Below are positions 3,415-18,585 of a stretch of 32,034 nucleotides of DNA, piece after piece. Each line of letters opens with the position of its first letter. The first letter of the stretch is position 1. The notes under the pieces are model-generated. The model was not told the origin of the DNA, ran no database searches, and was given only the letters and a program-made list of their open reading frames with translations. The stretch is taken from positions 1-32,034 of the forward strand of contig JAOPZY010000159.1 of assembly GCA_025963875.1 (NCBI GenBank), written 5' to 3'. A program made the translations under genes and the position numbers. Source of the stretch: Actinomycetota bacterium (GTDB taxonomy: Bacteria; Actinomycetota; CADDZG01; JAHWKV01; JAOPZY01).

Positions 3415-3461
3415 TGATATCGCACTGCGATGTCGATATACGATATCGCTCAACGATATGG
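3415..3461. promoter_or_regulatory. Putative PadR-family operator array (four CGATATCG-like boxes, 13-bp period)
   Basis: TGATATCG 3415-3422, CGATGTCG 3428-3435, CGATATCG 3441-3448, CGATATGG 3454-3461; overlaps the padR start codon in a divergent intergenic region. Confidence 0.65.
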
Positions 3462-5399: not shown

Positions 5400-8300
5400 A
5401 TGTATCCGACGGAGTCCCCCGTGTCCTGGTCCTATCAGAAGGATTCCACCTGGCGGCGGCTGCCGGTCCCGCTTCCGGGACTGGGCCCCCTGTCCGGCGT
5501 CGCCTCGTTTCTGGCCAACCTTCCGCTGCTCGGGACCATCCTCGCCCTGATCGTGCTGCTCCTCGTGGGGGCGGTCGTGCTCGCCGGGGTCGTGCTCTTC
5601 GTGGTGCTCGGGCCCATTTCCATCCCGAAGGAGCTTCCATCTGCCACTGCCAAGACCACTACCGTCTACGCGCCGGATGGCAGCGTCATCACGAGCTGGC
5701 ATGGCGCCATCAACCGCCAGCCGGTCGCCCTGGACCGCATCTCCAAATATCTGCCGCAGGCGGTCGTCGCCGAGGAGGACGCCCGCTACTACTCCAATCC
5801 GGGCATCGATGTCCGCTCGGCGATCCGGGCGGCGATGGCCGACCTCCGGTCCGGCAAGGTCGTCGAGGGCGGCTCGACGATCACCCAGCAGTACGTGAAG
5901 GTTGCCTTCGTCGGCAACAAGCCCTCGCTCGGCCGCAAGATCCTCGAGGCCCGGATCGCCCTGGAGATCTCGCGCCACCTGAGCAAGAACGAGATCATGA
6001 ACCGCTACCTCAACACCGTGTACTTCGGCAACGGGGCCTACGGTGCGCAGGCGGCCGCCAGGGCCTACTTCGGCAAGGATGCCGCCGACCTGTCGATTTC
6101 CCAGGCGGCGATGCTGGCGGGGATCATCCACTCACCCGACCACGACTCGCCCCTGACGAACCCGGCGGGCGCCGAGGCCGACCGCCTCCGGGTCGTGGGC
6201 CGGATGGAGGCGTTGGGTCAGATCTCCCACGCCGAGGCCGACCAGGTTCGGGCCGACAAGCCCACCCTGGTCACGCCGGTCCCGGACAACCCCCACTTGG
6301 CGTGGTTCCTGGACGCTCTGCGCGCGCAGATGATCCAGCGCTATGGAGCGAAGGCCGTGTACGAGGGAGGCCTGCAGATCCACACGACGGTGGACGCGGG
6401 CATGCAGGCGGGAGCCGAGGCCACGCTGGCGGCGGCCCTCCCCAACCCCGCCGATCCGTACGGGGCACTCGTGACGGTCGATCCCGCCACGGGGTTTGTG
6501 AAGGCGGTTGTGGGGGGCCGGGCCTACGGCACCGAGAAGTTCAACATCGCGACGATGGGCCGGCGCCAGCCCGGCTCTGCGTTTAAACCCTTCGTGCTGG
6601 CGGCCGCCCTCGAGCACGGGATCTCGCCGCAGGCCTATTACCAGGGGCCGGCACGCCTCTGTCCCAAGGGATGGATTCCCGGCTGCGTCAGCAACTTCGG
6701 CGGCGAGTCCTTCGGCGGCATCAGCGTCACCGACGCCACGGTCAACTCCGTCAACACCGTCTATGCGCAGCTGATCCTCCAGGTCGGGCCGAAGGCCGTG
6801 GTCGATGTCGCGAAGGCGATGGGGATCCCCGCCCCCGGCGGCATCGTGCCCCCCCTGGTCGCCTGCAGGCCGGCCGGGAGCGACATCTGCCAGACCTACC
6901 TGCCGGCCGTCCCCTCGCTCGCCCTCGGCAGCGCCAGCGTGACGCCGCTGGAGATGGCATCGGCGTACGCCACCTTCGCCGCCGGCGGGGTCTACCGGGC
7001 CCCGAAGCTGGCGTCCCAGGTCGTCGATGCGACGGGGAAGGTCCTCGACGACGGACCCTCGCCCCCAGTGCAGGCCATCCCGTCGGCAGTCGCGGACCAG
7101 GTCACCCAGATCCTGCAGCAGGTGATCACCAGGGGCACCGGGACGGCAGCCGCCATCGGCCAGCCCGCCGCGGGCAAGACCGGGACGGCCACCGACTATC
7201 GCAACGCATGGTTCGTGGGCTACACACCGGCGCTCGCAACGGCGACCTGGGTGGGGTACCGGGACACGAACCAGTCCCTCCTGAACGTCGAGGGCGTGGC
7301 GCAGATGACCGGCGGGACGATCCCGGCCAAGATCTGGTCGAACTACATGAAGGGTGCGGTCGACACGTCTCCGCCCGTGACCTCGGTGACCTCCGGGCCC
7401 GCGGACGGGACGGCCACCAACCAGAAGACCCCCTCCTTCGGCGGCGCTGCCAGCGATGACGACGGGAGTGTGACCTCCGTGGAGGCGAGCGTCGACGGGG
7501 GACCGTTCGCCACCGCCGGGGTCTCCTGCGCGGGCTGCCCGGCCGCCAAGGTCACGTGGAGCTACGTAGCGCCCACCGCCCTGGCCGACGGCTCGCACAC
7601 CTTCGCCTTCCGCTCCATCGACACCGGGCAGCACGATTCCCCCCTCGTCACCCGGACGGTCACCGTCGACACGGTGCCGCCGGTGCCGGCCGGCGTGCAG
7701 GCCACGGGGGGCGGGACCACACTGACCCTCGCCTTCTCGAAGCCGTTGCTCTGCTCCTCGCTCTCCCCGGCCAGCTTCTCGGTCAGGCTGGGGGACCGCT
7801 CGGGTGTGGTCACCGGCGTCTCGTGCCCCGGCACCGCCTCGCCGTCGGTCGTCGTCACCCTCTCCTCCCCGCCCCGGGGAGGCGATCAGGTGGCGGTCAC
7901 GGTGGTCAACCTGAGGGCCGGTCCGACCGATCAGGCCGGCAACCAGGTGGCCGACCCCCGCACCGTGACGGCGACGGCCAGCAACGTCGCGCCGGTCGCC
8001 GGCATCACCGGCGGGATGCCGGACGCAACCCTCACGTCCAACGCCCAGCCCGGGTACCAGGGCACGACCCAGGACCCCGACGGCAACGTCACGTCCGTCG
8101 TGGCGAGCGTCGACGGCGGGCCCTTCAGCGACGCTGGGATTTCCTGCCAGGGCTGCTTCAACGGCGCCCCGGTGGGAGGGCCGGCGTCCTGGTCCTGGCG
8201 GGCGCCGCAGCGGCTCGTCGACGGCACCCACACCATCGCCGTGCGGGCCGTCGACAACGCCGCCGCAGTCTCGCCGGCCGTCACCCGCACGGTCACCGTG

Positions 8301-9893
8301 GACACCGTGCCGCCGAGGCCCACGGGGCTGGATGCAGCCGGTGGTTCGACGACCGTGGCCGTGGCCTTCTCAAAGCCGCTGGTCTGCTCGTCGGTCGCCC
8401 CCACCCACTTCACCGCCAGGTCGGCCGGGCGCAGCTTGGGCGTGACGGCGGTCTCGTGTGACGGCCCGGAGGCCGGTTCACTGCACCTCACCCTGACGAG
8501 TCCCGTCAGGGGCGGTGACCAGGTGGACGTCACCGTCGCCTCGTTCACCGGAGGACCGGTGGACCGGGCGGGGAACAACATCGGCGACCCCCGGACCGTG
8601 AGTGGAACCGCCACCAACGTCGGGCCTCGTGCCGACCTCACCGGCGGGACACCGGACGGCGCCCTGACCTCCAACGCCCAACCAACTGTCCAGGGCTCGG
8701 CGGTCGATCCCGACGGCAACGTCATGTCCGTGGAGGCGAGCGTCGACGGCTCGCCCCTCAGTGGCGACGGCGTCTCCTGCCAGGGCTGCTTCCGGACCGC
8801 CCAGGTGGGCGGCCCGGTCACCTGGACCTGGCGTTCGGTGCTCCGCCTGCCCGACGGCCCCCACACCATCGCCATTCGGGCCGTGGACAACGCCGCCGCC
8901 GACTCCGCCCCCGTCAGCCGGACGGTCACCGTGGACACTGTGGCACCGAAGGCGACCGGTCTCCAGATCGCGGGGGGCTCCTCCTCGGTGACCGCGACGT
9001 TCTCCAAGCCGCTGCTCTGCTCCACCCTCAACCCCGCCGACGTCTCGGTGGTGGAGGGGAACCAGCGGCCGCTGGTCTCGGTTCTGGCCTGCAAGGATCC
9101 GGCCTCCGACACCATCGGGCTCACCCTCGCCACGCCGCCCCGGGGCGGGGAGCAGGTCCAGGTGACCATGGGGACCGCCGCGACCGACCAGGCCGGCAAC
9201 CGGGTGACCGGCGGAGCCGCGGGCGCCACGGCTCCCAACCGTGCCCCGGCCCTCGACGTCACCTCGGGGGCGCCGCTGCTCACGTCCGATCCCCGGCCGT
9301 CGTTCCAGGGCTCCGCCACCGACCTGGACGGCTCGGTCGCACGGGTCGAGGCGAGCCTCGACGGAGGCCCGTTCGGCGCTGCCGGCGTGAACTGCTCGGC
9401 ATGCTCCGGTTCCGGGCCCGGAACCGGAGCTGGAACGGTCGGAATTCCGGTTTCCTGGTCCTACCAGGCGGCGAGACTCGCCGAGGGGCCGCACACGCTC
9501 GTGCTGCGGTCGGTCGACAATGGGGGGGCGACCTCGCCGGAGGTGACCCGCACCGTCGTCGTCGATACCTCCATCCCCGTCGTGAAGGCGGTTATGGCGG
9601 CGGCGGGCTCCAATGTCGTCTCGGTCATTTTCAACAAGCCGGTCATCTGCTCGAGCGTCAACGTCGGCAACTTCTCGGTCACCGTCGACGGGGCGCCGGC
9701 CACCCTCGTCGTCGCCACCTGCCTGGGTGGCAGCGACGCGGTCGTCGACCTGGGGATGAGCCGGGCCCCGAGCCCGGGCCAAGTGGTCAAGGTCTCGATC
9801 GACCGCCCGGTCATGGACGATGCCGGGAACCGCTCCGCCGCCCCGGTCGTCCTCGCGTCGTCGCCCGACCTGACCCCCGCCGACCTGCCCTGA
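5400..9893 (+). CDS. Class A (bifunctional transglycosylase/transpeptidase) penicillin-binding protein with long C-terminal Ig-like repeat region
   Basis: N-terminal TM helix; GT51 motifs EDARYY, GGSTITQQYVK, RKILE, KNEIMNRYLNTVYFG; transpeptidase motifs SAFK (SxxK), SVN (SxN), KTGT; then about 840 aa of repeats. Confidence 0.92.
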   Translation: MYPTESPVSWSYQKDSTWRRLPVPLPGLGPLSGVASFLANLPLLGTILALIVLLLVGAVVLAGVVLFVVLGPISIPKELPSATAKTTTVYAPDGSVITSWHGAINRQPVALDRISKYLPQAVVAEEDARYYSNPGIDVRSAIRAAMADLRSGKVVEGGSTITQQYVKVAFVGNKPSLGRKILEARIALEISRHLSKNEIMNRYLNTVYFGNGAYGAQAAARAYFGKDAADLSISQAAMLAGIIHSPDHDSPLTNPAGAEADRLRVVGRMEALGQISHAEADQVRADKPTLVTPVPDNPHLAWFLDALRAQMIQRYGAKAVYEGGLQIHTTVDAGMQAGAEATLAAALPNPADPYGALVTVDPATGFVKAVVGGRAYGTEKFNIATMGRRQPGSAFKPFVLAAALEHGISPQAYYQGPARLCPKGWIPGCVSNFGGESFGGISVTDATVNSVNTVYAQLILQVGPKAVVDVAKAMGIPAPGGIVPPLVACRPAGSDICQTYLPAVPSLALGSASVTPLEMASAYATFAAGGVYRAPKLASQVVDATGKVLDDGPSPPVQAIPSAVADQVTQILQQVITRGTGTAAAIGQPAAGKTGTATDYRNAWFVGYTPALATATWVGYRDTNQSLLNVEGVAQMTGGTIPAKIWSNYMKGAVDTSPPVTSVTSGPADGTATNQKTPSFGGAASDDDGSVTSVEASVDGGPFATAGVSCAGCPAAKVTWSYVAPTALADGSHTFAFRSIDTGQHDSPLVTRTVTVDTVPPVPAGVQATGGGTTLTLAFSKPLLCSSLSPASFSVRLGDRSGVVTGVSCPGTASPSVVVTLSSPPRGGDQVAVTVVNLRAGPTDQAGNQVADPRTVTATASNVAPVAGITGGMPDATLTSNAQPGYQGTTQDPDGNVTSVVASVDGGPFSDAGISCQGCFNGAPVGGPASWSWRAPQRLVDGTHTIAVRAVDNAAAVSPAVTRTVTVDTVPPRPTGLDAAGGSTTVAVAFSKPLVCSSVAPTHFTARSAGRSLGVTAVSCDGPEAGSLHLTLTSPVRGGDQVDVTVASFTGGPVDRAGNNIGDPRTVSGTATNVGPRADLTGGTPDGALTSNAQPTVQGSAVDPDGNVMSVEASVDGSPLSGDGVSCQGCFRTAQVGGPVTWTWRSVLRLPDGPHTIAIRAVDNAAADSAPVSRTVTVDTVAPKATGLQIAGGSSSVTATFSKPLLCSTLNPADVSVVEGNQRPLVSVLACKDPASDTIGLTLATPPRGGEQVQVTMGTAATDQAGNRVTGGAAGATAPNRAPALDVTSGAPLLTSDPRPSFQGSATDLDGSVARVEASLDGGPFGAAGVNCSACSGSGPGTGAGTVGIPVSWSYQAARLAEGPHTLVLRSVDNGGATSPEVTRTVVVDTSIPVVKAVMAAAGSNVVSVIFNKPVICSSVNVGNFSVTVDGAPATLVVATCLGGSDAVVDLGMSRAPSPGQVVKVSIDRPVMDDAGNRSAAPVVLASSPDLTPADLP
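7362..9890 (+). repeat. Four tandem intragenic repeats of about 207-211 aa (each two beta-rich Ig-like modules)
   Basis: Units start near 7362, 7983, 8616, 9237 (spacing 621/633/621 nt). Conserved DxDGxVxxVxASxDGxP, CxxC, LxxGxHTxxxRxxD, VDTxxP, FxKPxxCS, DxAGN. Confidence 0.9.
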
Positions 9894-9900
9894 AGCTCAG

Positions 9901-9957
9901 CTAGACTTCCTTGAGCATTTCACCGCGTAGAGCGCGGTCAGATGCTCAAAGAATTTC
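9901..9957. repeat. 57-bp palindromic REP-like element, copy A
   Basis: TTCCTTGAGCA-N7-GCG-TAGAG-CGC-N7-TGCTCAAAGAA (arms 9907-9917 and 9943-9953); same geometry as the element at 16236-16292. Confidence 0.75.
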
Positions 9958-9972
9958 CTGAGACCGTTCCCC

Positions 9973-10371
9973 ATGAGCCCACCCTTCGAGCAGCTCGACT
10001 TCCTCTACACGCCGAGCGGCGACGTCGCTGCCGACGCCCGCTGGTTCACCGAGGTACTCGGCGGCCGGCTGGTCTTTGCCATCGAGGCGATGGGGGCGCG
10101 CGTGGCCATGGTGGAGCTCACCGACGGGCCGCCGCACTTCCTGCTGACCGACCACCTGGAGGGCGACTTGCCGGTGTTCGTCTACCGGGTGGCCAGCATC
10201 GAGGCGACGCTGGCCGGCTTGGAGGAGCGGGGCTGGGAACGGGTGGCCAGCTTCGAGATCCCGCAGGGTCCGTGTTGCTCGTTCCGGGGGCCGGGTGGCC
10301 ACCGAATCGCCGTCTACGAGGAAGTGAGGCCCGGCGTGGCGGACCATTTCGCAGGCCGTTTTGACTTTTGA
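9973..10371 (+). CDS. VOC/glyoxalase superfamily protein (single domain)
   Basis: LDFLYTPSGDVAADARWFTEVLGG, VYRVASIEAT, EIPQGPCCSFRGPGGHRIAVYE. Confidence 0.85.
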   Translation: MSPPFEQLDFLYTPSGDVAADARWFTEVLGGRLVFAIEAMGARVAMVELTDGPPHFLLTDHLEGDLPVFVYRVASIEATLAGLEERGWERVASFEIPQGPCCSFRGPGGHRIAVYEEVRPGVADHFAGRFDF

Positions 10372-10472
10372 GCCGTGCTGCCGTCCGCCATGCCATGCCC
10401 ATGGGAATGTTTAGAAGGCTACAGATGGGTTAGGTAGGACCGGCAAGAACCCGACCGTCGAGGGGGAGGACA

Positions 10473-10823
10473 TTGCCCGAGACCGACCGAGCCATCATGC
10501 TGGGCATCCGCCATCGCTGCGGGCAGGAGGTCCAGTTCTGGATCCCCGCAGAGCTGGTCGTCGCCATCGCCCGCCGCCTGGACGAGAGCACGCAGGCCCT
10601 CGGGCTCGCCCAGTGGATGGAGGGCGAGGGTCTCCTCGCAGACCTGGACGAGGCGCCGGCGGAGGTCCTCGTCGACCGGCTGCGCGCGGAGCTGGCTCCC
10701 AGGGGCATCGCCTTCATCGACGTCGACCGGGACGCCTCCGTGTGCCCCACGTGTGGAGCGCTGCTGCGCTGGCTCGACATCCTGGCCGACTATGCCCACC
10801 GTGCCGCCGGGGGAGCCGCTTAG
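10473..10823 (+). CDS. Hypothetical protein with split Zn-ribbon-like motifs
   Basis: High-GC3 codon usage; HRCG near the N-terminus and CPTCG near the C-terminus. Start TTG 10473 or ATG 10497. Confidence 0.65.
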   Translation: MPETDRAIMLGIRHRCGQEVQFWIPAELVVAIARRLDESTQALGLAQWMEGEGLLADLDEAPAEVLVDRLRAELAPRGIAFIDVDRDASVCPTCGALLRWLDILADYAHRAAGGAA

Positions 10824-11010
10824 CCTCCATGTGTCTGAAGGGGGGCGAGTCGCGGTGTGCCCCCCTGCATAGGTCCTTCCCCCCTGACCCAGGCCGGGAG
10901 CCCCCGCCTCGGGCACACCGCTCTCGCTGAGAGTGAGAGTTCCTCACGAGCCAGAAGATACGCGGATGCGTAGGGAAATCCCCGAAGCGGCGCTGGTAAG
11001 GTGGGAGACC

Positions 11011-12132
11011 GTGTCGGCCGATTCTCTGCTGTCCGCCTCTGAGCTCGTCCCTGCGGGGCGGGGCGGCCCGCGCAGCGAGCGATTCCTCGCCGCCTGTGCC
11101 CGGCGCCCGGTCGACGCGACGCCGGTGTGGATGATGCGCCAGGCCGGCCGGTCGCTGCCCGCCTACCGGGAGCTGCGGCAGCGCTTCGGCCTGGTCGAGA
11201 TCACCCGGCAGCCGGACCTGTGCGCCGAGGTCACCCTCATGCCCATCCGGGTGCTGGACGTGGACGCAGCGATCATGTTCGCCGACATCATGCTGCCGCT
11301 CGCCGGCCTCGGCGTGCGCTTCGAGCTCGTCGAGGACCTCGGCCCCGTGGTGGCGGAACCCATCCGCTCCGCAGCCCAGGTCGATGCCATGACCACCCCG
11401 TCGGCTGCCGAGTCGGTACCGACGGTGCTGGAGGCCATCAGGATCATCCGCCGCGAGCTCGAGGGAGTCGTGCCGCTGATCGGCTTCTCCGGCGCCCCCT
11501 TCACGCTGGCGAGCTACCTGATCGAGGGCCGGCCGAGCCGGGACTTCTCCCGCACGAAGGCCCTGATGTTCACCGACCCCGGCACGTGGCACAAGCTCAT
11601 GGAGCGCCTCACCGCCATGGTCGTCGACTACCTTTCCGAGCAGGTCGCCGCCGGCATCCAGGCCCTGCAGCTCTTCGATTCCTGGGTCGGCGCCCTCGCT
11701 CCTCGCGACTACGCCGAGTTTGTGGCACCCCACACCGCGGCCATCTTCGACGCGACGGCGGGCTTCGGGGTGCCTCGCATCCATTTCGGCACCAACACGG
11801 CCACGCTCCTCGAGGCGATGGCCACGCCCGGCGCCGAGGCGACCCGCCCGGACGTGGTCGGGGTGGACTGGCGGATCCCCCTGGACCTCGCGTGGGAGCG
11901 GATCGGCACCGACCGGGCGGTTCAGGGCAACCTCGAGCCTGCCACGCTGCTGGCGCCACCGGCGACGGTCGTCGAGCGAACCGAGGCGGTGCTGCGGGCA
12001 GCGGGAGGCCGCCCGGGCCACATCTTCAACCTCGGGCACGGGGTCCTGCCCGACTCCCCGCTCGACAACCTGCAGCTGATGGTGGACACCGTGCACGCGT
12101 TCCGCGCATCGGACGAAGGCGGCGGCCAGTGA
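11011..12132 (+). CDS. hemE: Uroporphyrinogen decarboxylase
   Basis: TPVWMMRQAGRSLPAYR, DAAIMFADI, LIGFSGAPFTLASYLIEG, QLFDSW, QGNLEP, HIFNLGHG. Start estimated at GTG 11011 (ORF track extends to 10933). Confidence 0.96.
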   Translation: MSADSLLSASELVPAGRGGPRSERFLAACARRPVDATPVWMMRQAGRSLPAYRELRQRFGLVEITRQPDLCAEVTLMPIRVLDVDAAIMFADIMLPLAGLGVRFELVEDLGPVVAEPIRSAAQVDAMTTPSAAESVPTVLEAIRIIRRELEGVVPLIGFSGAPFTLASYLIEGRPSRDFSRTKALMFTDPGTWHKLMERLTAMVVDYLSEQVAAGIQALQLFDSWVGALAPRDYAEFVAPHTAAIFDATAGFGVPRIHFGTNTATLLEAMATPGAEATRPDVVGVDWRIPLDLAWERIGTDRAVQGNLEPATLLAPPATVVERTEAVLRAAGGRPGHIFNLGHGVLPDSPLDNLQLMVDTVHAFRASDEGGGQ

Positions 12133-13049
12133 CCACGGCGGTGCTGTGCATGGCCTACGGGGGCCCCAACTCCCTGGAGGAGGTGGAGGACTACTACACC
12201 GACATCCGGGGCGGCCGCCGGCCGTCGGCGGAGTCGCTGGCAGACCTCATGAGCCGCTACGAGGCCATCGGGGGCCTGTCGCCGCTGCCAGACATCACCC
12301 GCCGCCAGGCAGCGGCCCTGGGAGAGGTCCTGGAGGCGGCGTCGCCGGGGAGGTATCGAACGCACGTCGGGATGAAGCACTGGCACCCGTTCGTCGGTGA
12401 GGCCGTCCAGGACATCGCCGCCGAGGGGGCCGACGAGGTGATCGGGCTCGTGCTGGCCCCCCACTACTCGAAGATGAGCATCGGGGGCTACGAGCAGCGG
12501 CTCCGGGCGGCCAAGGCCGCCACGGGGGCCACCTTCTCCGTGGAGATGGTCCCGTACTGGTACGACGACGAAGGCTTCGTCGCCTTCGCCGCCGAGAACC
12601 TCCGCGCCGCGCTGGGGGACTGGGATCCGGCGGACTCGGCCACGAGGGTCTTCTTCTCCGCCCACAGCCTGCCGGAACGCATCCTGGCCGAGGGGGACCC
12701 CTACAAGGACCAGCTCCTCGACTCCTCCCGGCTGATCGCCGAGGCCGCGGGCGTGCCGGACTGGGAGTTCGCCTTCCAGAGCCAGAGCCATACCGGCGAG
12801 CCGTGGCTCGGTCCCGACGTGCTGACCAGCCTGGACGCCTTCGCCGCGGCGGGCGGCAAGCGGGCGGTCGTCTCGCCGATCGGCTTCGTCGCCGACCACC
12901 TGGAAGTGCTGTTCGACCTGGACATCGAGGCCGCGGAGCAGGCCACAAAGCTCGGCGTCGACCTTCGGCGCACCACGTCGCCCAACGACGATCCCCGCTT
13001 CATCCAGGTCCTCGCCGGCGTCGTGCAGAAGCGAGGCGGCGGGGCCTGA
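12129..13049 (+). CDS. hemH: Ferrochelatase (Gram-positive / coproporphyrin type likely)
   Basis: MAYGGP, RYEAIGGLSPL, GMKHWHPFV, LAPHYS, FSAHSLP, WLGPDV, GFVADHLEVLFDLD; GTG start overlaps the hemE stop. Confidence 0.95.
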   Translation: MTTAVLCMAYGGPNSLEEVEDYYTDIRGGRRPSAESLADLMSRYEAIGGLSPLPDITRRQAAALGEVLEAASPGRYRTHVGMKHWHPFVGEAVQDIAAEGADEVIGLVLAPHYSKMSIGGYEQRLRAAKAATGATFSVEMVPYWYDDEGFVAFAAENLRAALGDWDPADSATRVFFSAHSLPERILAEGDPYKDQLLDSSRLIAEAAGVPDWEFAFQSQSHTGEPWLGPDVLTSLDAFAAAGGKRAVVSPIGFVADHLEVLFDLDIEAAEQATKLGVDLRRTTSPNDDPRFIQVLAGVVQKRGGGA

Positions 13050-13051
13050 AC

Positions 13052-13067
13052 CCCCGGTCTCCCGGGG
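13052..13067 (+). terminator. Short GC hairpin after hemH
   Basis: CCCCGG-TCTC-CCGGGG just after the stop codon; no U-tract. Confidence 0.3.
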
Positions 13068-13102
13068 AGCTATCTTGGGGGTCGGGTGGCATCGCCGGAA
13101 GG

Positions 13103-14368
13103 ATGATCGTGGGGGAGCTCGAAGACTTCGTTCGTGAGGAGTACCGGCGCCGGGAGCAGATCGTCAGTTCCCACTTCGCCACCGAGGCTCCCCGTCTCGC
13201 CCGGGCGTGCCATGCCATGGCCGAGCGGTTCGCCCGCGGGGGTCGCATCCTGGCCTTCGGCATGGGGCCGGCCGCCACCGACGCCTCCCATATCTCCGTG
13301 GAGTTCGTCCACCCGGTCATCGTCGGCAAGCGGGCCCTGCCGGCGATCGCCCTGCCGAACGACGGGCCCACCGCCCTGGGCCTGGCCGCGGAGGACGGGG
13401 CCTCGGTGTTCGCCCGGCAGATCGAGGCCATCGGCGAGCCCGACGACATCGCCATCGGGCTGTCGCTGTCGCCCGACGACCCCTCCGAGCCGGCCGTCGC
13501 GGCGGGCATCAAGCAGGCCGCCGCCAAAGGCATGCAGACGATTGCGCTCACCGGGCCGAGCTCCCATGCCAGGACCTGGGAGGCCGACTGGCTGTTCACC
13601 TGCGAGGACGGGGACCCCTTCGTCGTCCAGGAGGTCCACGAAACGGGCTACCACGTGCTGTGGGAACTGGTGCACGTCTTCTTCGAGCACAAAGGTCTGC
13701 TGAAGGGCAGGACCGCGGGTCACGTCCAGGACTCCGGGGCGTCGGGGTTCCTCTACCCCTTCCTCGCCGAGGCGGAGACCAATCTCGACGAGGTCCTCGC
13801 CGAGATCCAGGGCTCGATCCTCCAGAAGGCGCAGGACGTCATCGACATCCGGGCAGCCGGGGCCAGGGCCGACCCCGGCAACCTGACCGCCGCCGCCAGG
13901 GTGCTCGGGGAGCGCTTCGCCCAGGGCGCCAAGGTCCTCGCATTCGGCAACGGCGGCTCGGCCACCGACGCCCAGGACTTCGTCACCGACCTGATGGCGC
14001 CCCCGCGGGGCCTGCGCCCACGGCCGGCCCTGTCGCTGACCAACGAGGAGGCGGTGATCACCGCGGTCGGCAACGACGTCGGCTTCGACAACGTCTACGC
14101 CCGCCAGGTCATCGCCTTCGGCAAGCCGGGCGACGTCGCGTTCGCCATCTCCACGTCGGGCGGTTCGCGCAATGTGCTCGCCGCCCTGGAGGAGGCCCGC
14201 CGCCGCAAGCTCGTCTGCTTCGGCCTCGCCGGCTACGGCGGGGGGCCGATGGTGACCAGGGGCCTGGTCGACCACTCGATCACCATCGACTTCGAGTACA
14301 TCCCCCGCATCCAGGAGGCTCAGGCCAGCCAGTACCACATCCTCCGGCGACTGGTCGAAATGGTCTAA
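13103..14368 (+). CDS. Tandem SIS-domain (GmhA / phosphoheptose isomerase-like) protein
   Basis: Domain 1: GGRILAFGMG..ATDASHISVEFVHPVIVGKRALPAIAL..HVLWELVHVFFE. Domain 2: FLYPFL..KVLAFGNGGSATDAQD..ITAVGNDVGF..ISTSGGSRNV..PRIQE. ATG 13103 preceded by GGAAGG. Confidence 0.88.
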   Translation: MIVGELEDFVREEYRRREQIVSSHFATEAPRLARACHAMAERFARGGRILAFGMGPAATDASHISVEFVHPVIVGKRALPAIALPNDGPTALGLAAEDGASVFARQIEAIGEPDDIAIGLSLSPDDPSEPAVAAGIKQAAAKGMQTIALTGPSSHARTWEADWLFTCEDGDPFVVQEVHETGYHVLWELVHVFFEHKGLLKGRTAGHVQDSGASGFLYPFLAEAETNLDEVLAEIQGSILQKAQDVIDIRAAGARADPGNLTAAARVLGERFAQGAKVLAFGNGGSATDAQDFVTDLMAPPRGLRPRPALSLTNEEAVITAVGNDVGFDNVYARQVIAFGKPGDVAFAISTSGGSRNVLAALEEARRRKLVCFGLAGYGGGPMVTRGLVDHSITIDFEYIPRIQEAQASQYHILRRLVEMV

Positions 14369-14372
14369 TTGG

Positions 14373-15149
14373 TCAGGATGTCGGCGGCTGGATCAGCTTG
14401 AAGTGTGCCCCGGTGGGATCGGCGGCCTCGGCCATGCGTCCGTACGGGGTGTCCTCGGCCGGCCGGACGATTGAGCCACCGAGTTCGACGATCTTCGCCA
14501 GGACAGCGTCGGCGTCCTCGACCCCGAAGTAGATGGACCACTTGGCCGGGGCACCCTCGGGCAGGAAGCCGGAGGCGTCCATGATGCCGGCGGCCTGGCC
14601 CTCGCCTTCGCCGAGCGTCGTGTAGCGGAACTCGGGGGTGTCGGCGGCGGCGTGGGTGTCCCATTTGAAGACCTGCCGGTAGAATTCGACGGATTCGTCG
14701 TAGTTGCGGGTGAACAGCTCTAACCAGCTCGGGGCGCCGGGCTCTGCCAGGACCCCGAATCCCTTGTGAAGTCCGGGCTGCCAGACACCGATCGCGGCCC
14801 CACCGGGATCGGCAACGAGGGCCATGCTGCCCAGCTGCATGACCTCCATGGCAGGCATGATGACCTGTCCGCCGTTGGCAGCCGTCGCCTCGGCCGTCTT
14901 CTCGGCGTCGTCGGAGGCGAGGTAGACGGTCCAGACGTCGGGCATCCCGGCCTGCCCGTCGTTGCGCATGCAACCGCTGACGTAGACGCCGTCCTTCCGG
15001 AAGTTGACGTAGCCGCCGTACTCTTCGCCCGTCTCTTCGGACGTCCAGCCGAACAGCCCGCCGTAGAACGCCCGGCTCTTGTCCGGATCGGACGTGAACA
15101 CCTCGATCCAGCAGGGGGCCCCGATGGGGGCTTCTTCACGCTGAGGCAC
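14373..15149 (-). CDS. Two-domain VOC/glyoxalase protein (Rv0911/Cfp32-like)
   Basis: GAPCWIEVFTSDPDKSRAFYGGLFGW and second repeat GAPSWLEL..EFYRQVFKW..DTPYGRMAEAADPTGAHF; GTG 15149 preceded by AAAGGAG. Confidence 0.92.
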   Translation of the reverse strand: MPQREEAPIGAPCWIEVFTSDPDKSRAFYGGLFGWTSEETGEEYGGYVNFRKDGVYVSGCMRNDGQAGMPDVWTVYLASDDAEKTAEATAANGGQVIMPAMEVMQLGSMALVADPGGAAIGVWQPGLHKGFGVLAEPGAPSWLELFTRNYDESVEFYRQVFKWDTHAAADTPEFRYTTLGEGEGQAAGIMDASGFLPEGAPAKWSIYFGVEDADAVLAKIVELGGSIVRPAEDTPYGRMAEAADPTGAHFKLIQPPTS

Positions 15150-15184
15150 GGGAGGCTCCTTTCGAATGGGAAACGCTGACATCC

Positions 15185-15215
15185 GTTAGATGCTCCGGCG
15201 GCCCGGAACTCATCG
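15185..15215 (-). promoter_or_regulatory. Putative SigG/ECF56-type promoter for the VOC gene
   Basis: Minus strand CGATGA-N18-ATCTAAC; resembles the recalled mycobacterial SigG consensus CGATGA-N18-GTCNNTA (-35 exact, -10 partial). Confidence 0.6.
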
Positions 15216-15232
15216 GTCGGGTGCGGGGAATT

Positions 15233-16210
15233 TCACGCCTCGATACGGTCCGGGAGGCCGAACTCGGCGAAGAGTTCCGGGAAGAGGAAGTTGTGGTGGC
15301 CCACGATCCTGCCCCCCGCCACCTCGATCACCTGGACGGCCCACGGCTCCCAGAGGCCGGGCCGGACCAGGTGGTAGTTGCCGTACCCGGCGGTGCCGTT
15401 GACGTTGATCGGCAGAAGGCGGCCGTGCTCGCAGACGATCCCAGTGCCCAGGAACCAGTCCGCCAGCTCCTGGGGCCCCCGCAGCCAGACGTCCCAGGGC
15501 GGCATCGACAGGACGACGTCGTCGCGCAGCAGGCCAACGAGGGCAGGGATGTCGTAGCGCTCGAAGGCGTCGACGTAGCGGGCCAGCAGCGCCCGGTGGT
15601 CGGGATCGAGCGTGGGATCGAGGGCCTCCCCCTGCATCCCCGCCAGGGTCGCCCGGGCCCGCTGCAGCGCGCTATTCACGGAGGCCACGGTCGTTTCGAG
15701 CAGCTCGGCCACCTCGGTGGCCTGCCACTGCAGCACCTCACGGAGGATCAGCACGGAGCGCTGCCGGGCCGGGAGGTGCTGCAACGCCGCGACGAAGGCG
15801 AGCCGGATCGATTCCCGGGCCGCGGCGACGTCGGCGGGGTCACCGTCGACGTCGATGACGCGCTCGTCGGCGATGGGTTGGACGAACATGTGCTCGGGCA
15901 GCTGGTCGCCGAGGACGACCTCCGCGGTGGCGGTCGATGGACCCATCTCCATCGGGCGTGCCCGCCGCTGGGGGCTGCGGAGCATGTCGATGCAGATGTT
16001 GTTGGCGATGCTGTACAGCCACGTCCTGAGCGACGAGCGACCTTCGAACCGGTCGATCGAGGCCCACGCCCGCACCATCGTCTCCTGCACGGCGTCCTCG
16101 GCCTCGGACCCCGCCCCCATCATCCGGTAGCAGTAGCCGGTGAGCTCCCGGCGGTGAGACTCCAGGGCGCGTTCGAGATCGGTACCGGCCATGGACAGAG
16201 AGGAGGACAT
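15233..16210 (-). CDS. sigG: ECF sigma-70 factor with C-terminal SnoaL-like domain (SigG / ECF56-like)
   Basis: HRRELTGYCYRMMG..AEDAVQETMVRAW..FEGRSSLRTWLYSIA, RESIRLAFVAALQHLPARQR, SVNSALQRARATL, C-terminal LLARYVDAFERYDI..DDVVLSMPP. Perfect minus-strand TATAAT at 16219-16224, 8 nt before the ATG. Confidence 0.88.
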   Translation of the reverse strand: MSSSLSMAGTDLERALESHRRELTGYCYRMMGAGSEAEDAVQETMVRAWASIDRFEGRSSLRTWLYSIANNICIDMLRSPQRRARPMEMGPSTATAEVVLGDQLPEHMFVQPIADERVIDVDGDPADVAAARESIRLAFVAALQHLPARQRSVLILREVLQWQATEVAELLETTVASVNSALQRARATLAGMQGEALDPTLDPDHRALLARYVDAFERYDIPALVGLLRDDVVLSMPPWDVWLRGPQELADWFLGTGIVCEHGRLLPINVNGTAGYGNYHLVRPGLWEPWAVQVIEVAGGRIVGHHNFLFPELFAEFGLPDRIEA

Positions 16211-16235
16211 CGAACCCGATTATATGACCGCCCTC

Positions 16236-16292
16236 GAAATTCTTTGAGTACAGGTCGACGTACAGCGTCATTTCATACTCAAAGAAGTTTAG
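16236..16292. repeat. 57-bp palindromic REP-like element, copy B (overlaps divergent promoters)
   Basis: TTCTTTGAGTA-N7-ACG-TACAG-CGT-N7-TACTCAAAGAA (perfect 11-bp arms 16240-16250 and 16276-16286). Confidence 0.75.
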
Positions 16293-16301
16293 AATTGTCT
16301 T

Positions 16302-17222
16302 ATGGAGCGCTGGCTTGCGACGGCGAGTGGTCAACACGGGCTCATCACGCGGCAACAAATGCGCAATTTGGGGTTTACCGTGCGGGCAATCGAATGGAAG
16401 ATCGAGGTCGCGACCATCGAGGAGATGCTGCCGGGGGTCTACCGGGTCGGCGGCTCTGCCCGGACCTGGGAGCAGCGGGTTAGGGCCGCTTGCCTGTGGG
16501 GCGGCCCGGGTGCGTGCGCCTCCCACAAGTCGGCCGCTGCGCTGTGGCAGTTGGATGGGTTCGGTCCGGGGCCGGTCGAGATCTCCACCCTCAAGCAGAA
16601 CCGGGCGCACCTATCGTTCAAGGTGCATCGGACGCAGGTGGAACCGGCGTTCACTACGAGCAAACTGGGCATTCCCGTCACGAACGCTTTCCGGACGGTG
16701 CGCGATGTGGTCGGCATCGTCAGCGAGGACCGGTCGAACCAAGTGCTCGACGAGGCGCTGCGGAAAGGGTTGGTCTCCATGGACGCCCTCCGGCGGATGG
16801 TGGATCGGGAGAAACGTTCCGGCCGTCGTGGTCTCGGCGTGCTCCGTCGGCTGGTGGAGCAGCGGGAGCCGGGGTACCAGCCGTCGGCCTCCGAGCTCCA
16901 GGCGGCCACCCGCCGGCTGCTCGTCGCGGCCGGCATCGAGTTCGTCGAAGAGTTCGTGGTGACCGACGACAAGGGCAACTTCGTGGCCCGGGTCGATTTC
17001 AAGCTGGTGGGCTCGCCGGTCGTCGTCGAGTCCGACGGGCGGGCGAACCACTCATCCAAGCTCGACTGGCAGCACGACCTGGACCGGCGCAACCTCCTCA
17101 CCGCCCTGGGGCTCGGCGTCATCCACGTCACCTGGGACAAGGTCATGAACCGCCCGGACGAGTTTCTTGCCGAAGTCAGAGACGCCTCTACACGCCGGCC
17201 TTGGCCGCCGCCAACTCCTTGA
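16302..17222 (+). CDS. AbiEi-like N-terminal wHTH plus DUF559 / very-short-patch-repair-like endonuclease domain protein
   Basis: LATASGQHGLITRQQMRNLG..LPGVYRV, ASHKSAAALWQL, GIPVTNAFRTVRD, SASELQ, FVARVDF..VVVESDGRANH..DLDRRNLL..LGVIHVTW. TAGAAT at 16290-16295 is 6 nt before the ATG (leaderless). Confidence 0.85.
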   Translation: MERWLATASGQHGLITRQQMRNLGFTVRAIEWKIEVATIEEMLPGVYRVGGSARTWEQRVRAACLWGGPGACASHKSAAALWQLDGFGPGPVEISTLKQNRAHLSFKVHRTQVEPAFTTSKLGIPVTNAFRTVRDVVGIVSEDRSNQVLDEALRKGLVSMDALRRMVDREKRSGRRGLGVLRRLVEQREPGYQPSASELQAATRRLLVAAGIEFVEEFVVTDDKGNFVARVDFKLVGSPVVVESDGRANHSSKLDWQHDLDRRNLLTALGLGVIHVTWDKVMNRPDEFLAEVRDASTRRPWPPPTP

Positions 17223-18585
17223 CCAGCTCGCCGGTGAACGCCTTGGCGTCCCCGAAGAGCATCATCGTCTTGTCCATGTAGTAGAGGTCGTTGTCGATGC
17301 CGGCGAAGCCGGGGCTCATCGACCGCTTGATGACCATCACCGTCGACGCCTTGTCGACGTCGAGGATGGGCATGCCGTAGATAGGGGAGGTCTTGTCGGT
17401 CTTGGCCGCCGGGTTGGTGACGTCGTTCGCCCCGATGATCACCACGACGTCGGTCTGGGCGAACTCGGGGTTGATCTCGTCCATCTCGATGAGGCGGTCG
17501 TAGGGGATGTCCGCCTCGGCGAGCAGCACGTTCATGTGGCCCGGCATCCGCCCGGCGACGGGATGGATGGCGAATTTCACGTCCACGCCGGCCTTCGTGA
17601 GCGAGTCGTACAGCTCGCGAACTTTGTGCTGGGCCTGGGCGACCGCCATGCCGTAGCCCGGCACGACGACCACACGGGAGGCGACCTCGAGGATGGAGGC
17701 CGCCTCCTCCGCCGAAGCGCTGCGGTAGGGCCGCTGCTCGGTGGCCCCGCCCGCCTGCGCCACCTGGCCGAAGCCACCGAAGAGCACGTTGGTGAACGAT
17801 CGGTTCATGGCCTTGCACATGATGATCGACAGGATCAGGCCCGACGACCCGTCGAGGGCGCCCGCGACGATCAGCAGGGGGTTGTTCAGCACGAAGCCCA
17901 TCGCCGAGGCGGAGAGACCGGCGTAGGAGTTGAGGAGTGAGATAACCGTCGGCATGTCGGCGCCGCCGATCGGGATGATGAGGAGCACCCCAAAGAGCAG
18001 CGACAGCCCGGCTAGGGCGGGGAACAGGACGGTCTTGGTGGGGTCGGCGACGAGGTAGACGCCGATGGCGACGGCAATGGCAAAGAGGGTGAGGTTGACG
18101 GCATTCTGGCCCTTGTAGACCATCGGGCGGCTCGGGAGCAGCTCCTGGAGCTTACCGAACGCCATGAGGCTCCCCGTAAAGGTCAGGTAGCCCAGCAGCA
18201 CCTCCAGGATGAGGGCGACCATCTCGAAGTGGGTGAGGGGGGTGGCGCCGGCCCTCGCGTGCAGGTAGAACTCGGCGGTGCCGACCACCGCCGCTGCGAG
18301 GCCGCCGAAGGAGTGGGACAGGGCGGTCCGCTGGGGGACGTCCTTCATCGGCATGAAGATCGCCAGCGGCAGGCCGATGATGGCCCCGAGGACGAGGCCG
18401 ACGATGATCCAGTTGTAGGTCATGCCCTTGGTGATCAGGGCGCCGAGGATGGCGATCGCCATCCCGATCTCGCCGATGGTCACGCCCCGGCGGGCCGTCG
18501 AGGGCCGGGACAGCCACTTGAGCGCCAGGATGAAGCAGCCCGCAGCGATGATGTAGGTGTACTGCTGGAACGTGACGATGCTCAC
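17188..18585 (-). CDS. pntB: NAD(P) transhydrogenase subunit beta
   Basis: LTFTGSLMAFGKLQ, IGGADMPTVISLLNSYAG, CKAMNRS, VPGYGMAVAQAQH, IHPVAGRMPGHMNVLLAEA, IGANDVTNP, MLFGDAK; GTG 18585 overlaps the upstream stop. Confidence 0.97.
   Translation of the reverse strand: MSIVTFQQYTYIIAAGCFILALKWLSRPSTARRGVTIGEIGMAIAILGALITKGMTYNWIIVGLVLGAIIGLPLAIFMPMKDVPQRTALSHSFGGLAAAVVGTAEFYLHARAGATPLTHFEMVALILEVLLGYLTFTGSLMAFGKLQELLPSRPMVYKGQNAVNLTLFAIAVAIGVYLVADPTKTVLFPALAGLSLLFGVLLIIPIGGADMPTVISLLNSYAGLSASAMGFVLNNPLLIVAGALDGSSGLILSIIMCKAMNRSFTNVLFGGFGQVAQAGGATEQRPYRSASAEEAASILEVASRVVVVPGYGMAVAQAQHKVRELYDSLTKAGVDVKFAIHPVAGRMPGHMNVLLAEADIPYDRLIEMDEINPEFAQTDVVVIIGANDVTNPAAKTDKTSPIYGMPILDVDKASTVMVIKRSMSPGFAGIDNDLYYMDKTMMLFGDAKAFTGELVKELAAAKAGV

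Follow-up and report, generated by a model that had tools for sequence, protein, structure and literature searches.

Dispersed palindromes served by a dedicated enzyme are so far understood only for the REP/RAYT systems, in which an HUH transposase acts on single-stranded hairpins. Here we describe a family of AT-rich palindromes from an uncultured soil actinobacterium, two copies of which (A and B) lie in a 32,034-nucleotide stretch of its DNA (contig JAOPZY010000159.1), hereafter the window. Copy B adjoins a gene for a protein in which the fold of the AbiEi antitoxin is predicted to be fused to a Vsr-type nuclease fold. We consider it probable that the members of a multi-copy family of such fusions recognise the palindromes as their cognate DNA sites and repress their own genes through them, and, in the least certain part of this reading, that the nuclease spreads the sites. 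The genome analysed (G000) is a bin of 3.84 Mb in 273 contigs with 69% G+C, 94.56% complete and with 2.5% estimated contamination, in which the window is contig C263. Among the relatives used for comparison, G001 and G002 belong to the same genus as G000, G004 to the same family and G033 to another family of the same class.

In published accounts (PMC3337134, PMC3116915, bioRxiv 10.1101/119735), REP/REPIN-RAYT systems consist of short extragenic palindromes in tens to hundreds of copies, with several classes per genome and each class tied to one gene with an adjoining palindrome, and they are vertically inherited and lineage-restricted. The system described here is alike in all these respects. 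It differs in the enzyme: RAYTs are tyrosine transposases of the Y1/HUH (IS200/IS605) type, whereas the partner here is a predicted AbiEi-fold/Vsr-type nuclease, and PF01797 (Y1/HUH transposase) has no match in G000, with 6 of 14 known genomes matched as a positive control. RAYTs are typically single-copy and have REPs on both sides, whereas G000 contains 14 full-length paralogs, usually with one palindrome each, upstream. Our paralog table has 15 near-full-length rows, one for each of these paralogs and one for part of a frameshifted copy, and a downstream palindrome is found in 2 of them. REPs are ~20–40 bp long and occur largely as inverted REPIN doublets, whereas the palindromes here are 45–57-bp singlets, only 6 neighbouring pairs among 244 lying within 400 nt of each other. 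One subclass here has, furthermore, been copied with flanking DNA. The initial annotation of the window had likened the palindromes to REP elements handled by a different nuclease. A dispersed, REP-like, mostly intergenic family tied to genes for a different nuclease is indeed what we find, but it is not a member of REP/RAYT, because it has no Y1 transposase, a multi-copy partner gene and singlet palindromes.

The closest precedents for the protein are AbiEi and its relatives. According to one report (PMC7319586), two cooperating AbiEi monomers bind two 23-bp inverted repeats 3 bp apart in their own promoter and repress it, and the 23-bp repeats of Rv2827c lie 13 bp apart. The N-terminal 200 residues of the window protein are modelled with the same fold (6y8q, 1zel), and the arrangement of the DNA resembles the one in that report, with two long inverted repeats and a short centre over the own promoter, the arms here being ~20–24 bp and the centre 3–7 bp. 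Different from AbiEi, no AbiEii (DUF1814) toxin gene follows at the window locus and a nuclease domain is fused instead; since the open reading frame (ORF) ends inside the convergent gene pntB, no second gene can follow it, and an AbiE toxin-antitoxin pair is ruled out there. Moreover, the site here is dispersed and amplified ~15-fold beyond the genes, and the window protein is sub-threshold to Pfam AbiEi_4 (E 0.083), though several homologs carry PF13338.

The other half of the protein points to homing endonucleases of the EDxHD type. I-Bth0305I is a homodimer, according to its description (PMC3239194), with a C-terminal Vsr-like domain and a ~60-bp footprint that cuts the centre of a pseudopalindrome. 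A C-terminal Vsr-like catalytic domain in a multidomain protein is likewise predicted here, and the presumed target, long and pseudopalindromic, is a further likeness. The copies with variable ends would be accounted for if breaks were repaired from another copy and the flanks were co-converted. Unlike those enzymes, the gene here is not in an intron or intein, its putative DNA-binding part is an AbiEi module, and the presumed target is multi-copy and lies intact beside the gene; no empty allele cut by the enzyme was found in the sister-genome and soil-contig comparisons.

Miniature inverted-repeat transposable elements (MITEs) are small elements with inverted-repeat arms and sharp ends that occupy intergenic positions in many copies. 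The palindromes resemble them in size, inverted arms, sharp ends, position and number. They differ in that neither target-site duplications nor a parent insertion sequence whose ends match theirs was seen, and in that the whole element is one near-perfect palindrome.

The nuclease fusion and its upstream palindrome

The product of the window gene matches Pfam DUF559 (PF04480) at 23.5 bits against a cut-off of 20.6, and many of its homologs carry PF04480, PF13338 and PF18741. NCBIfam gave only two chance-level matches, and a sequence search of the PDB returned 3hrl at best, with an E-value of only 0.52, so that a fold search was needed. A structure model was built from 39 sequences (predicted local distance difference test score, pLDDT, 90.6) and compared with known structures by Foldseek. 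Residues ~1–200 matched the AbiEi antitoxin (6y8q_A, E 2.4e-6, template-modelling score TM(target) 0.63 over 202 columns) and also Rv2827c (1zel_A, E 5.7e-4). The C-terminal 100 residues matched the catalytic domain of I-Bth0305I (3r3p, TM(target) 0.76–0.78), as well as the DUF559 protein 3hrl and Vsr itself (1cw0, 1vsr). The model shows a protein consisting of an AbiEi-antitoxin fold (winged helix-turn-helix, wHTH, plus C-terminal domain) fused to a Vsr/EDxHD-type nuclease fold. Residues D232, E243 and H250 are invariant in 39 homologs, and together with D259 they are kept in 16 of the 17 rows from the own genome. Besides its 14 full-length paralogs, G000 contains a truncated copy, a frameshifted one and a number of fragments. 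Among public sequences clustered at 50% identity, the protein is matched by 16,677 clusters at E-values up to 0.001 and by 7,688 at 1e-10; judged from these matches, AbiEi-fold/Vsr-nuclease fusions appear to be a large family. The last 35 nt of the window ORF (17188–17222) overlap the 3′ end of pntB, and its final codons are probably read-through into flanking DNA, because the alignments of paralogs end at about residue 295–299.

Actinobacterial leaderless genes start ~6–7 nt after a TANNNT box. The nuclease gene is preceded by a TAGAAT box at such a distance (Table 1), which is the probable −10 of a leaderless promoter. Copy B occupies the place where a −35 region would be, and it extends to this −10 as the initial annotation had noted, its right arm ending at 16286, 3 nt ahead of the box. 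Scans of positions 9700–17400 for canonical promoters and terminators returned 0 of either; the sigma-70 scan finds no promoter at the nuclease gene because there is no −35 consensus there.

Table 1. Positions in the window of the two palindromes and of the nuclease gene with its putative promoter
Feature	Position	Strand	Remarks
Copy A, solo palindrome	9901–9957 (core 9907–9953)	.	CCGCG inner-stem subclass
Copy B, gene-linked palindrome	16236–16292 (core 16240–16286)	+	CGACG inner-stem subclass; directly upstream of the −10 of the nuclease gene
TAGAAT, probable −10 of leaderless promoter	16290–16295	+	6 nt before the ATG at 16302
Nuclease-fusion gene, 306 residues	16302–17222	+	residues ~1–200, predicted AbiEi-antitoxin fold; ~205–300, predicted Vsr/DUF559/EDxHD-type nuclease domain

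The association of gene and palindrome recurs among the paralogs. A 5′ palindrome of at least 14 of 20 pairs is present in 10 of the 15 near-full-length rows, and one of 13/20 in 2 more; of the remaining 3 rows, C57 has the right half only, C238 a degenerate palindrome and C106 a downstream palindrome only. In the clade of the window gene (clade 1) the order is palindrome, 2–8 nt, a TAGAAT/TAGACT-like box, 6 nt and the start position, and this order is found at 11 of 11 loci of G000, G001 and G002, ten of them with ATG or GTG and one, the C124 pseudogene, with CTG. A second protein clade has the promoter first and the palindrome over the start codon and the first codons, two further clades have the palindrome farther upstream, and each of the four clades has its own palindrome type. 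Protein identity is weakly correlated with palindrome identity (Spearman 0.25; 189 of 5000 permutations were as high). The tie to the wHTH-nuclease gene family that the initial annotation had surmised is borne out by these 10 of 15 rows and by close paralogs with similar palindromes. In sampled stretches of 78–417 kb, the two genomes without a paralog have 2 (G017) and 0 (G006) AT-rich palindromes per Mb, and the three with paralogs 20 (G033), 25 (G005) and 40 (G000), a comparison that is only indicative because the genomes are five in number and related.

In G033, contig C9 carries a paralog with a palindrome ~115 nt upstream and, 81 kb off, a solo copy of the same type (~198345 and 116860; L068 and L064); the gene-plus-solo pattern therefore reaches beyond the genus of G000.

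A lineage-restricted family of palindromes

Copy A starts 8 nt past the stop of a gene for a 1497-residue penicillin-binding protein and ends 15 nt before a glyoxalase-like ORF. Copies A and B were originally described as sharing a layout of 11-bp arm, 7 nt, 3-bp stem, 5-nt loop, 3-bp stem, 7 nt and 11-bp arm, and both read exactly so. A repeat search returned arms of 21 nt for copy A (9907–9927/9933–9953; 86% complementary, 5 nt apart) and of 14 nt for copy B (16237–16250/16276–16289; 93% complementary, 25 nt apart). Folded as single-stranded DNA, copy A reaches −14.7 kcal/mol (shuffle mean −5.08, z −5.56) and copy B −12.2 kcal/mol (shuffle mean −3.13, z −5.85), and 0 of 200 shuffles was as stable in either case.

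The pairing of A with B in the initial annotation has to be corrected, for the two have only 21 of 37 core positions in common and belong to separate subclasses. The core of copy A is identical at 37/37 positions to a solo copy at C217:13089 and at 35/37 to the gene-linked copy C246:1096, upstream of another paralog; because of these matches, the window nuclease gene is probably not the partner of copy A. Copy B has 7 solo relatives with 29–33 of 37 core positions in common. The paralogs tied to the two subclasses are 72–74% identical as proteins, and each subclass has one gene-linked copy. The compensatory differences between A and B are therefore differences between two subclasses, each with its own gene. 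The suggestion that the core had been flipped relative to the flanks agrees with our own reading of the copy listing: with the asymmetric flank as marker, the loop runs one way in 8 of 11 marked copies and is reversed in 3, including copy B.

The arm pattern TGAGYA-N24-27-TRCTCA was searched in G000 and 40 relatives, with the reversed pattern as control. G000 has 37 copies against 0 for the control, which excludes a chance origin of the A/B-type copies genome-wide and supplies the further copies that the initial annotation had proposed to look for. G001, G002 and G004 have 10, 63 and 31 copies, and the remaining 37 relatives 0–3, with 0–6 for the controls; the A/B-type family is lineage-restricted. 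A scan of a collection of genome contigs with the pattern matched at least 121 stretches, from unrelated and for the most part AT-rich phyla, and was disregarded because the pattern lacks the specificity for such a search. Nine genomes flagged as unpublished (G035, G038, G007, G028, G027, G030, G009, G019, G003) enter the paralog and arm-pattern tallies only, and eight homolog-locus rows (L006, L007, L010, L013, L021, L025, L029, L030) also come from such genomes; the main claims are independent of them. A likeness of the arm half-sites to the HspR operator (HAIR) was set aside in view of the ~27 nt between the halves and the 37 copies.

The A/B family is only part of a larger set. A general scan of G000 for 20-nt arms around a 3–7-nt centre found 252 palindromes with at least 16/20 pairs, against 33 in a Markov control, and 97 with at least 17/20, against 2. 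Of 280 AT-rich palindromes (<62% G+C, at least 15 pairs), 244 group into sequence-related clusters, and the A/B family belongs to this superfamily of ~244 related AT-rich palindromes of 45–57 bp. Sharply bounded classes are present, including a very AT-rich one that starts with TTCTTTG. Class b is a 47-bp element with 13-nt inverted ends, A5/T5 tracts and flanks that are sharply unrelated, found by pattern at 26 sites (e.g. C102:835, C161:2628); its 15-nt core is non-palindromic and occurs in both orientations.

At C217:13085-13238, C112:8365-8528 and C172 ~6413-6562, a class I-like palindrome, a conserved spacer of 63–71 nt and a palindrome of another class together form a composite that behaves as a repeat unit of ~150 bp.

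When the 28 copies whose interval measures 25 nt are aligned, pairing is good in the outer arm and in the inner stem and poor at positions 12–16 (29–57%). The covariation of the stems remarked on for A and B holds there too: inner-stem positions 17–20 each hold 2–3 Watson-Crick pair types, and the overall pairing of 0.726 was attained in none of 500 column shuffles, which gave 0.677 ± 0.013. Both the two-tier layout and the covariation thus belong to the family as a whole. Compensatory changes are no proof of a hairpin, for they would be expected equally if a symmetric protein dimer recognised duplex DNA.

For the placement of the copies, gene positions were taken from a crude caller based on ORFs and third-position G+C (GC3), which gave 2894 genes and 78% coding sequence. 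Only 5 of the 244 palindromes fall inside these ORFs; 86 lie in tandem, 84 in convergent and 32 in divergent spacers and 37 near contig ends, whereas the background in G000 is 1193 tandem, 450 convergent and 460 divergent spacers. In tandem spacers the copies lie at a median of 32 nt past the upstream stop as against 113 nt ahead of the next start. An intergenic bias had been proposed as a check, and nearly all copies prove to be intergenic, with enrichment after gene ends; the placement is REP-like, not promoter-like. Mismatches on the sense strand comprise 67 G:U and 51 A:C, with no preference for G:U, and so nothing points to selection on RNA structure. Solo palindromes outnumber the paralog genes ~15-fold.

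Turnover and mode of copying

Comparison of orthologous spacers shows a turnover of palindromes from one sister species to the next. Copy B and the nuclease gene, which lie downstream of pntB in G000, are both absent from the orthologous site of G001, where a solo palindrome of another class is found at 3 nt from the stop codon; at this site there are two other palindromes in G002, yet another class in G004 and none in G005. The spacer downstream of the gene for the penicillin-binding protein contains copy A in G000, a class II/III palindrome in G001 and no palindrome in G002. The spacer after that of copy A holds a class I copy in G002 and none in G000 or G001. The proposed comparison of filled with empty sites was less rewarding: contigs of four soil assemblies break in the palindromes, and no joint that cleanly skips an element was found among the matches listed.

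The G002 contig C407 (L236) differs from the window in two further places. It holds an extra 1.46 kb with a 438-residue ORF where the window has 21 bp (13044–13065), and relative to window positions 15235–17192 it is without the gene for a sigma factor of the extracytoplasmic-function type (15233–16210) and without the nuclease gene.

The best clue to how copies arise comes from the subclass with the CCCGCCCC inner stem. Its master lies at smpB on C57 (C57:11443-12950), and 8 further contigs hold its palindrome/promoter region or directly adjoining DNA. The copies include variable stretches of the 5′ end of the nuclease gene located downstream of smpB, two of them with internal deletions, and their ends vary (left at query positions 443–544, right at 516–763). 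In 4 copies (C124, C8, C273, C208), 37–74 nt of the 3′ end of smpB, encoding its C-terminal tail, are duplicated along with the palindrome and promoter of that nuclease gene; smpB is a host gene and is full-length on C57 only. These features suggest that the CCCGCCCC subclass was copied with variable lengths of flanking DNA, by break-induced copying rather than by transposition. Ends that vary and take in neighbouring host DNA would be consistent with copying from a template while a break is repaired, as happens when homing endonucleases co-convert flanks; they are inconsistent with a defined element being excised and integrated. The flank listings of the copies show no target-site duplication, and the unpaired arms examined as possible ends of a parent element are halves of known palindromes.

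In four public soil metagenome assemblies, contigs start or end inside the palindromes of the window (9926–9937 and 16257–16284), and the summed depth in the bin 9903–10203, which contains copy A, is several-fold above that of adjacent bins. The repeats therefore fragment assemblies of this organism.

Explanations for the palindromes, their significance and a further palindrome

We propose that one protein monomer would bind each arm of ~20–24 bp, so that two monomers would occupy a palindrome, as in the AbiEi precedent. Each arm would have a box of 11 bp on the outside and one of 4–5 bp on the inside, joined by a short A/T-rich spacer, and, by analogy with AbiEi and I-Bth0305I, the nuclease domains of the two bound monomers would meet near the centre. 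Where the palindrome lies on or beside the leaderless promoter, as copy B does, the protein would repress its own synthesis; copy B is a probable autoregulatory operator, a reading that suits it in view of the modelled AbiEi fold of the protein and of a palindrome laid out like the AbiEi operator. Solo copies such as A would be dispersed derivatives. The weakest step, drawn from one subclass, is that the nuclease would cut at or near the bound palindrome and that repair from another copy would spread the palindromes, sometimes with their flanks; such spread would be closer to the co-conversion of homing endonucleases than to the single-strand transposition of REP/RAYT. A bolder version of this proposal strikes us as possible, though open to more doubt than belief: each paralog would be a homing-like nuclease that binds and cuts its own palindrome of 45–57 bp, represses itself via the promoter copy, and multiplies the palindrome and occasionally itself by break repair. 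A partnership of the REP/RAYT type would then have been invented a second time, independently in its mechanism; it would act on duplex DNA and be widespread among Actinomycetota.

Several points weigh against recognition and spread of the palindromes by the nuclease fusions. Class b has no linked AbiEi-nuclease paralog, in an assembly that is 94.6% complete and breaks at such repeats. Protein and palindrome identity are only weakly correlated (rho 0.25), and the sequences, being related, do not count as independent. Palindrome density was sampled in only 5 genomes, the gene positions rest on the crude ORF/GC3 caller, and the genome is a bin with its 2.5% of estimated contamination. Among the matches listed from four soil runs there is no clean pair of filled and empty sites in near-identical strains, and the spacers of the sister species are too diverged to define junctions or a cleavable empty allele. 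Finally, sharp ends without flanking DNA are the rule among solo copies of classes II/III and b, and gene conversion alone does not explain how such copies arrive at new sites.

These sharp-ended copies with unrelated flanks, together with class b and its lack of a linked paralog, speak for another source of movement, in which the palindromes would be miniature mobile elements of the REP/MITE type moved by some other enzyme and the AbiEi-nuclease genes would merely exploit them, by insertion beside them or by borrowing them as operators. The presence of different classes in the same spacers of sister genomes, as if sites or hairpins were targets, would agree with this, as would the breaks of soil contigs in palindromes and the raised depth at copy A, both expected of a multi-copy repeat. 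However, no Y1/HUH transposase is found (PF01797, 0 matches in the 94.6%-complete genome), target-site duplications are not seen in the flank listings, and the unpaired arms are halves of known palindromes and seem not to be ends of longer elements. Palindrome types also track protein clades and subclasses, and sampled genomes without the gene have almost no such palindromes. We regard movement by another enzyme as unlikely.

The two remaining explanations are less likely still. If all copies were operators and the proteins transcription factors, the solo palindromes would mark a regulon of adjacent genes; an AbiEi-type fold, and a layout like that of an operator where the palindromes lie on the promoters of these genes, are in keeping with this, and Rv1044 was proposed to act away from its own locus (PMC7319586). 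An operator shared by a regulon had also been offered in the initial annotation. The operator half of that idea fits copy B, but a shared regulon is unlikely for the solo copies, because 84 of the 202 typed positions are between convergent genes. With 32 of 202 divergent, against a background of 450 convergent and 460 divergent spacers, and with the tandem-spacer copies nearer to the upstream stop than to the next start (medians 32 and 113 nt), such a regulon is hard to reconcile; nor are the solo copies conserved at orthologous sites, and the conserved nuclease residues would be needless in a pure regulator. We therefore give the idea very little credence. Alternatively, the palindromes could be structural elements of the host (terminators without T-tracts, stabilisers of mRNA 3′ ends or nucleoid sites), which the proteins, as caretakers, would maintain or homogenise. 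Structural, terminator and mRNA-stabilising roles are known for REPs, and the position of copies just after stop codons, their enrichment between convergent genes and their strong folding would suit such a role. Against it stand the missing strand bias to G:U (67 vs 51), the count of 0 canonical terminators in 9700–17400, the rapid turnover with other classes at the same sites and the poor pairing of arm positions 12–16 (29–57%), and a structural role is accordingly very improbable.

The initial annotation had recognised no described family in the palindromes, and we came to the same result. Rfam covariance models searched against the whole window on both strands, at E-values up to 1, gave 0 matches, and in the openly accessible full-text literature no published description of such palindromes with DUF559/AbiEi-type genes was found, nor any of RAYT-linked or other families of palindromic intergenic repeats in Actinobacteria. 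A partnership of palindromes with an AbiEi-fold/Vsr nuclease appears not to have been described in print. If the palindromes are indeed the sites of these nuclease fusions, a second kind of partnership, between a repressor fold plus Vsr-type nuclease and dispersed palindromes, would mean that systems of this sort have evolved more than once. The very large annotation class 'DUF559 / very-short-patch-repair endonuclease' (the 7,688 clusters at E-values up to 1e-10) would gain a function. The partnership would also account for the breaks at palindrome sites in assemblies of these soil actinobacteria and provide natural proteins that recognise sites of ~50 bp with modular and fast-evolving specificity. 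The persistence and spread of non-coding repeats in compact genomes would, moreover, become testable at the bench with one protein of 306 residues and a few 57-bp oligonucleotides.

Another AT-rich palindrome lies elsewhere in the window, at 3416–3460, between ORFs on opposite strands. It has 14/20 pairs, 44% G+C and GATATCG-like repeated units, and its sequence is unrelated to the A/B family.

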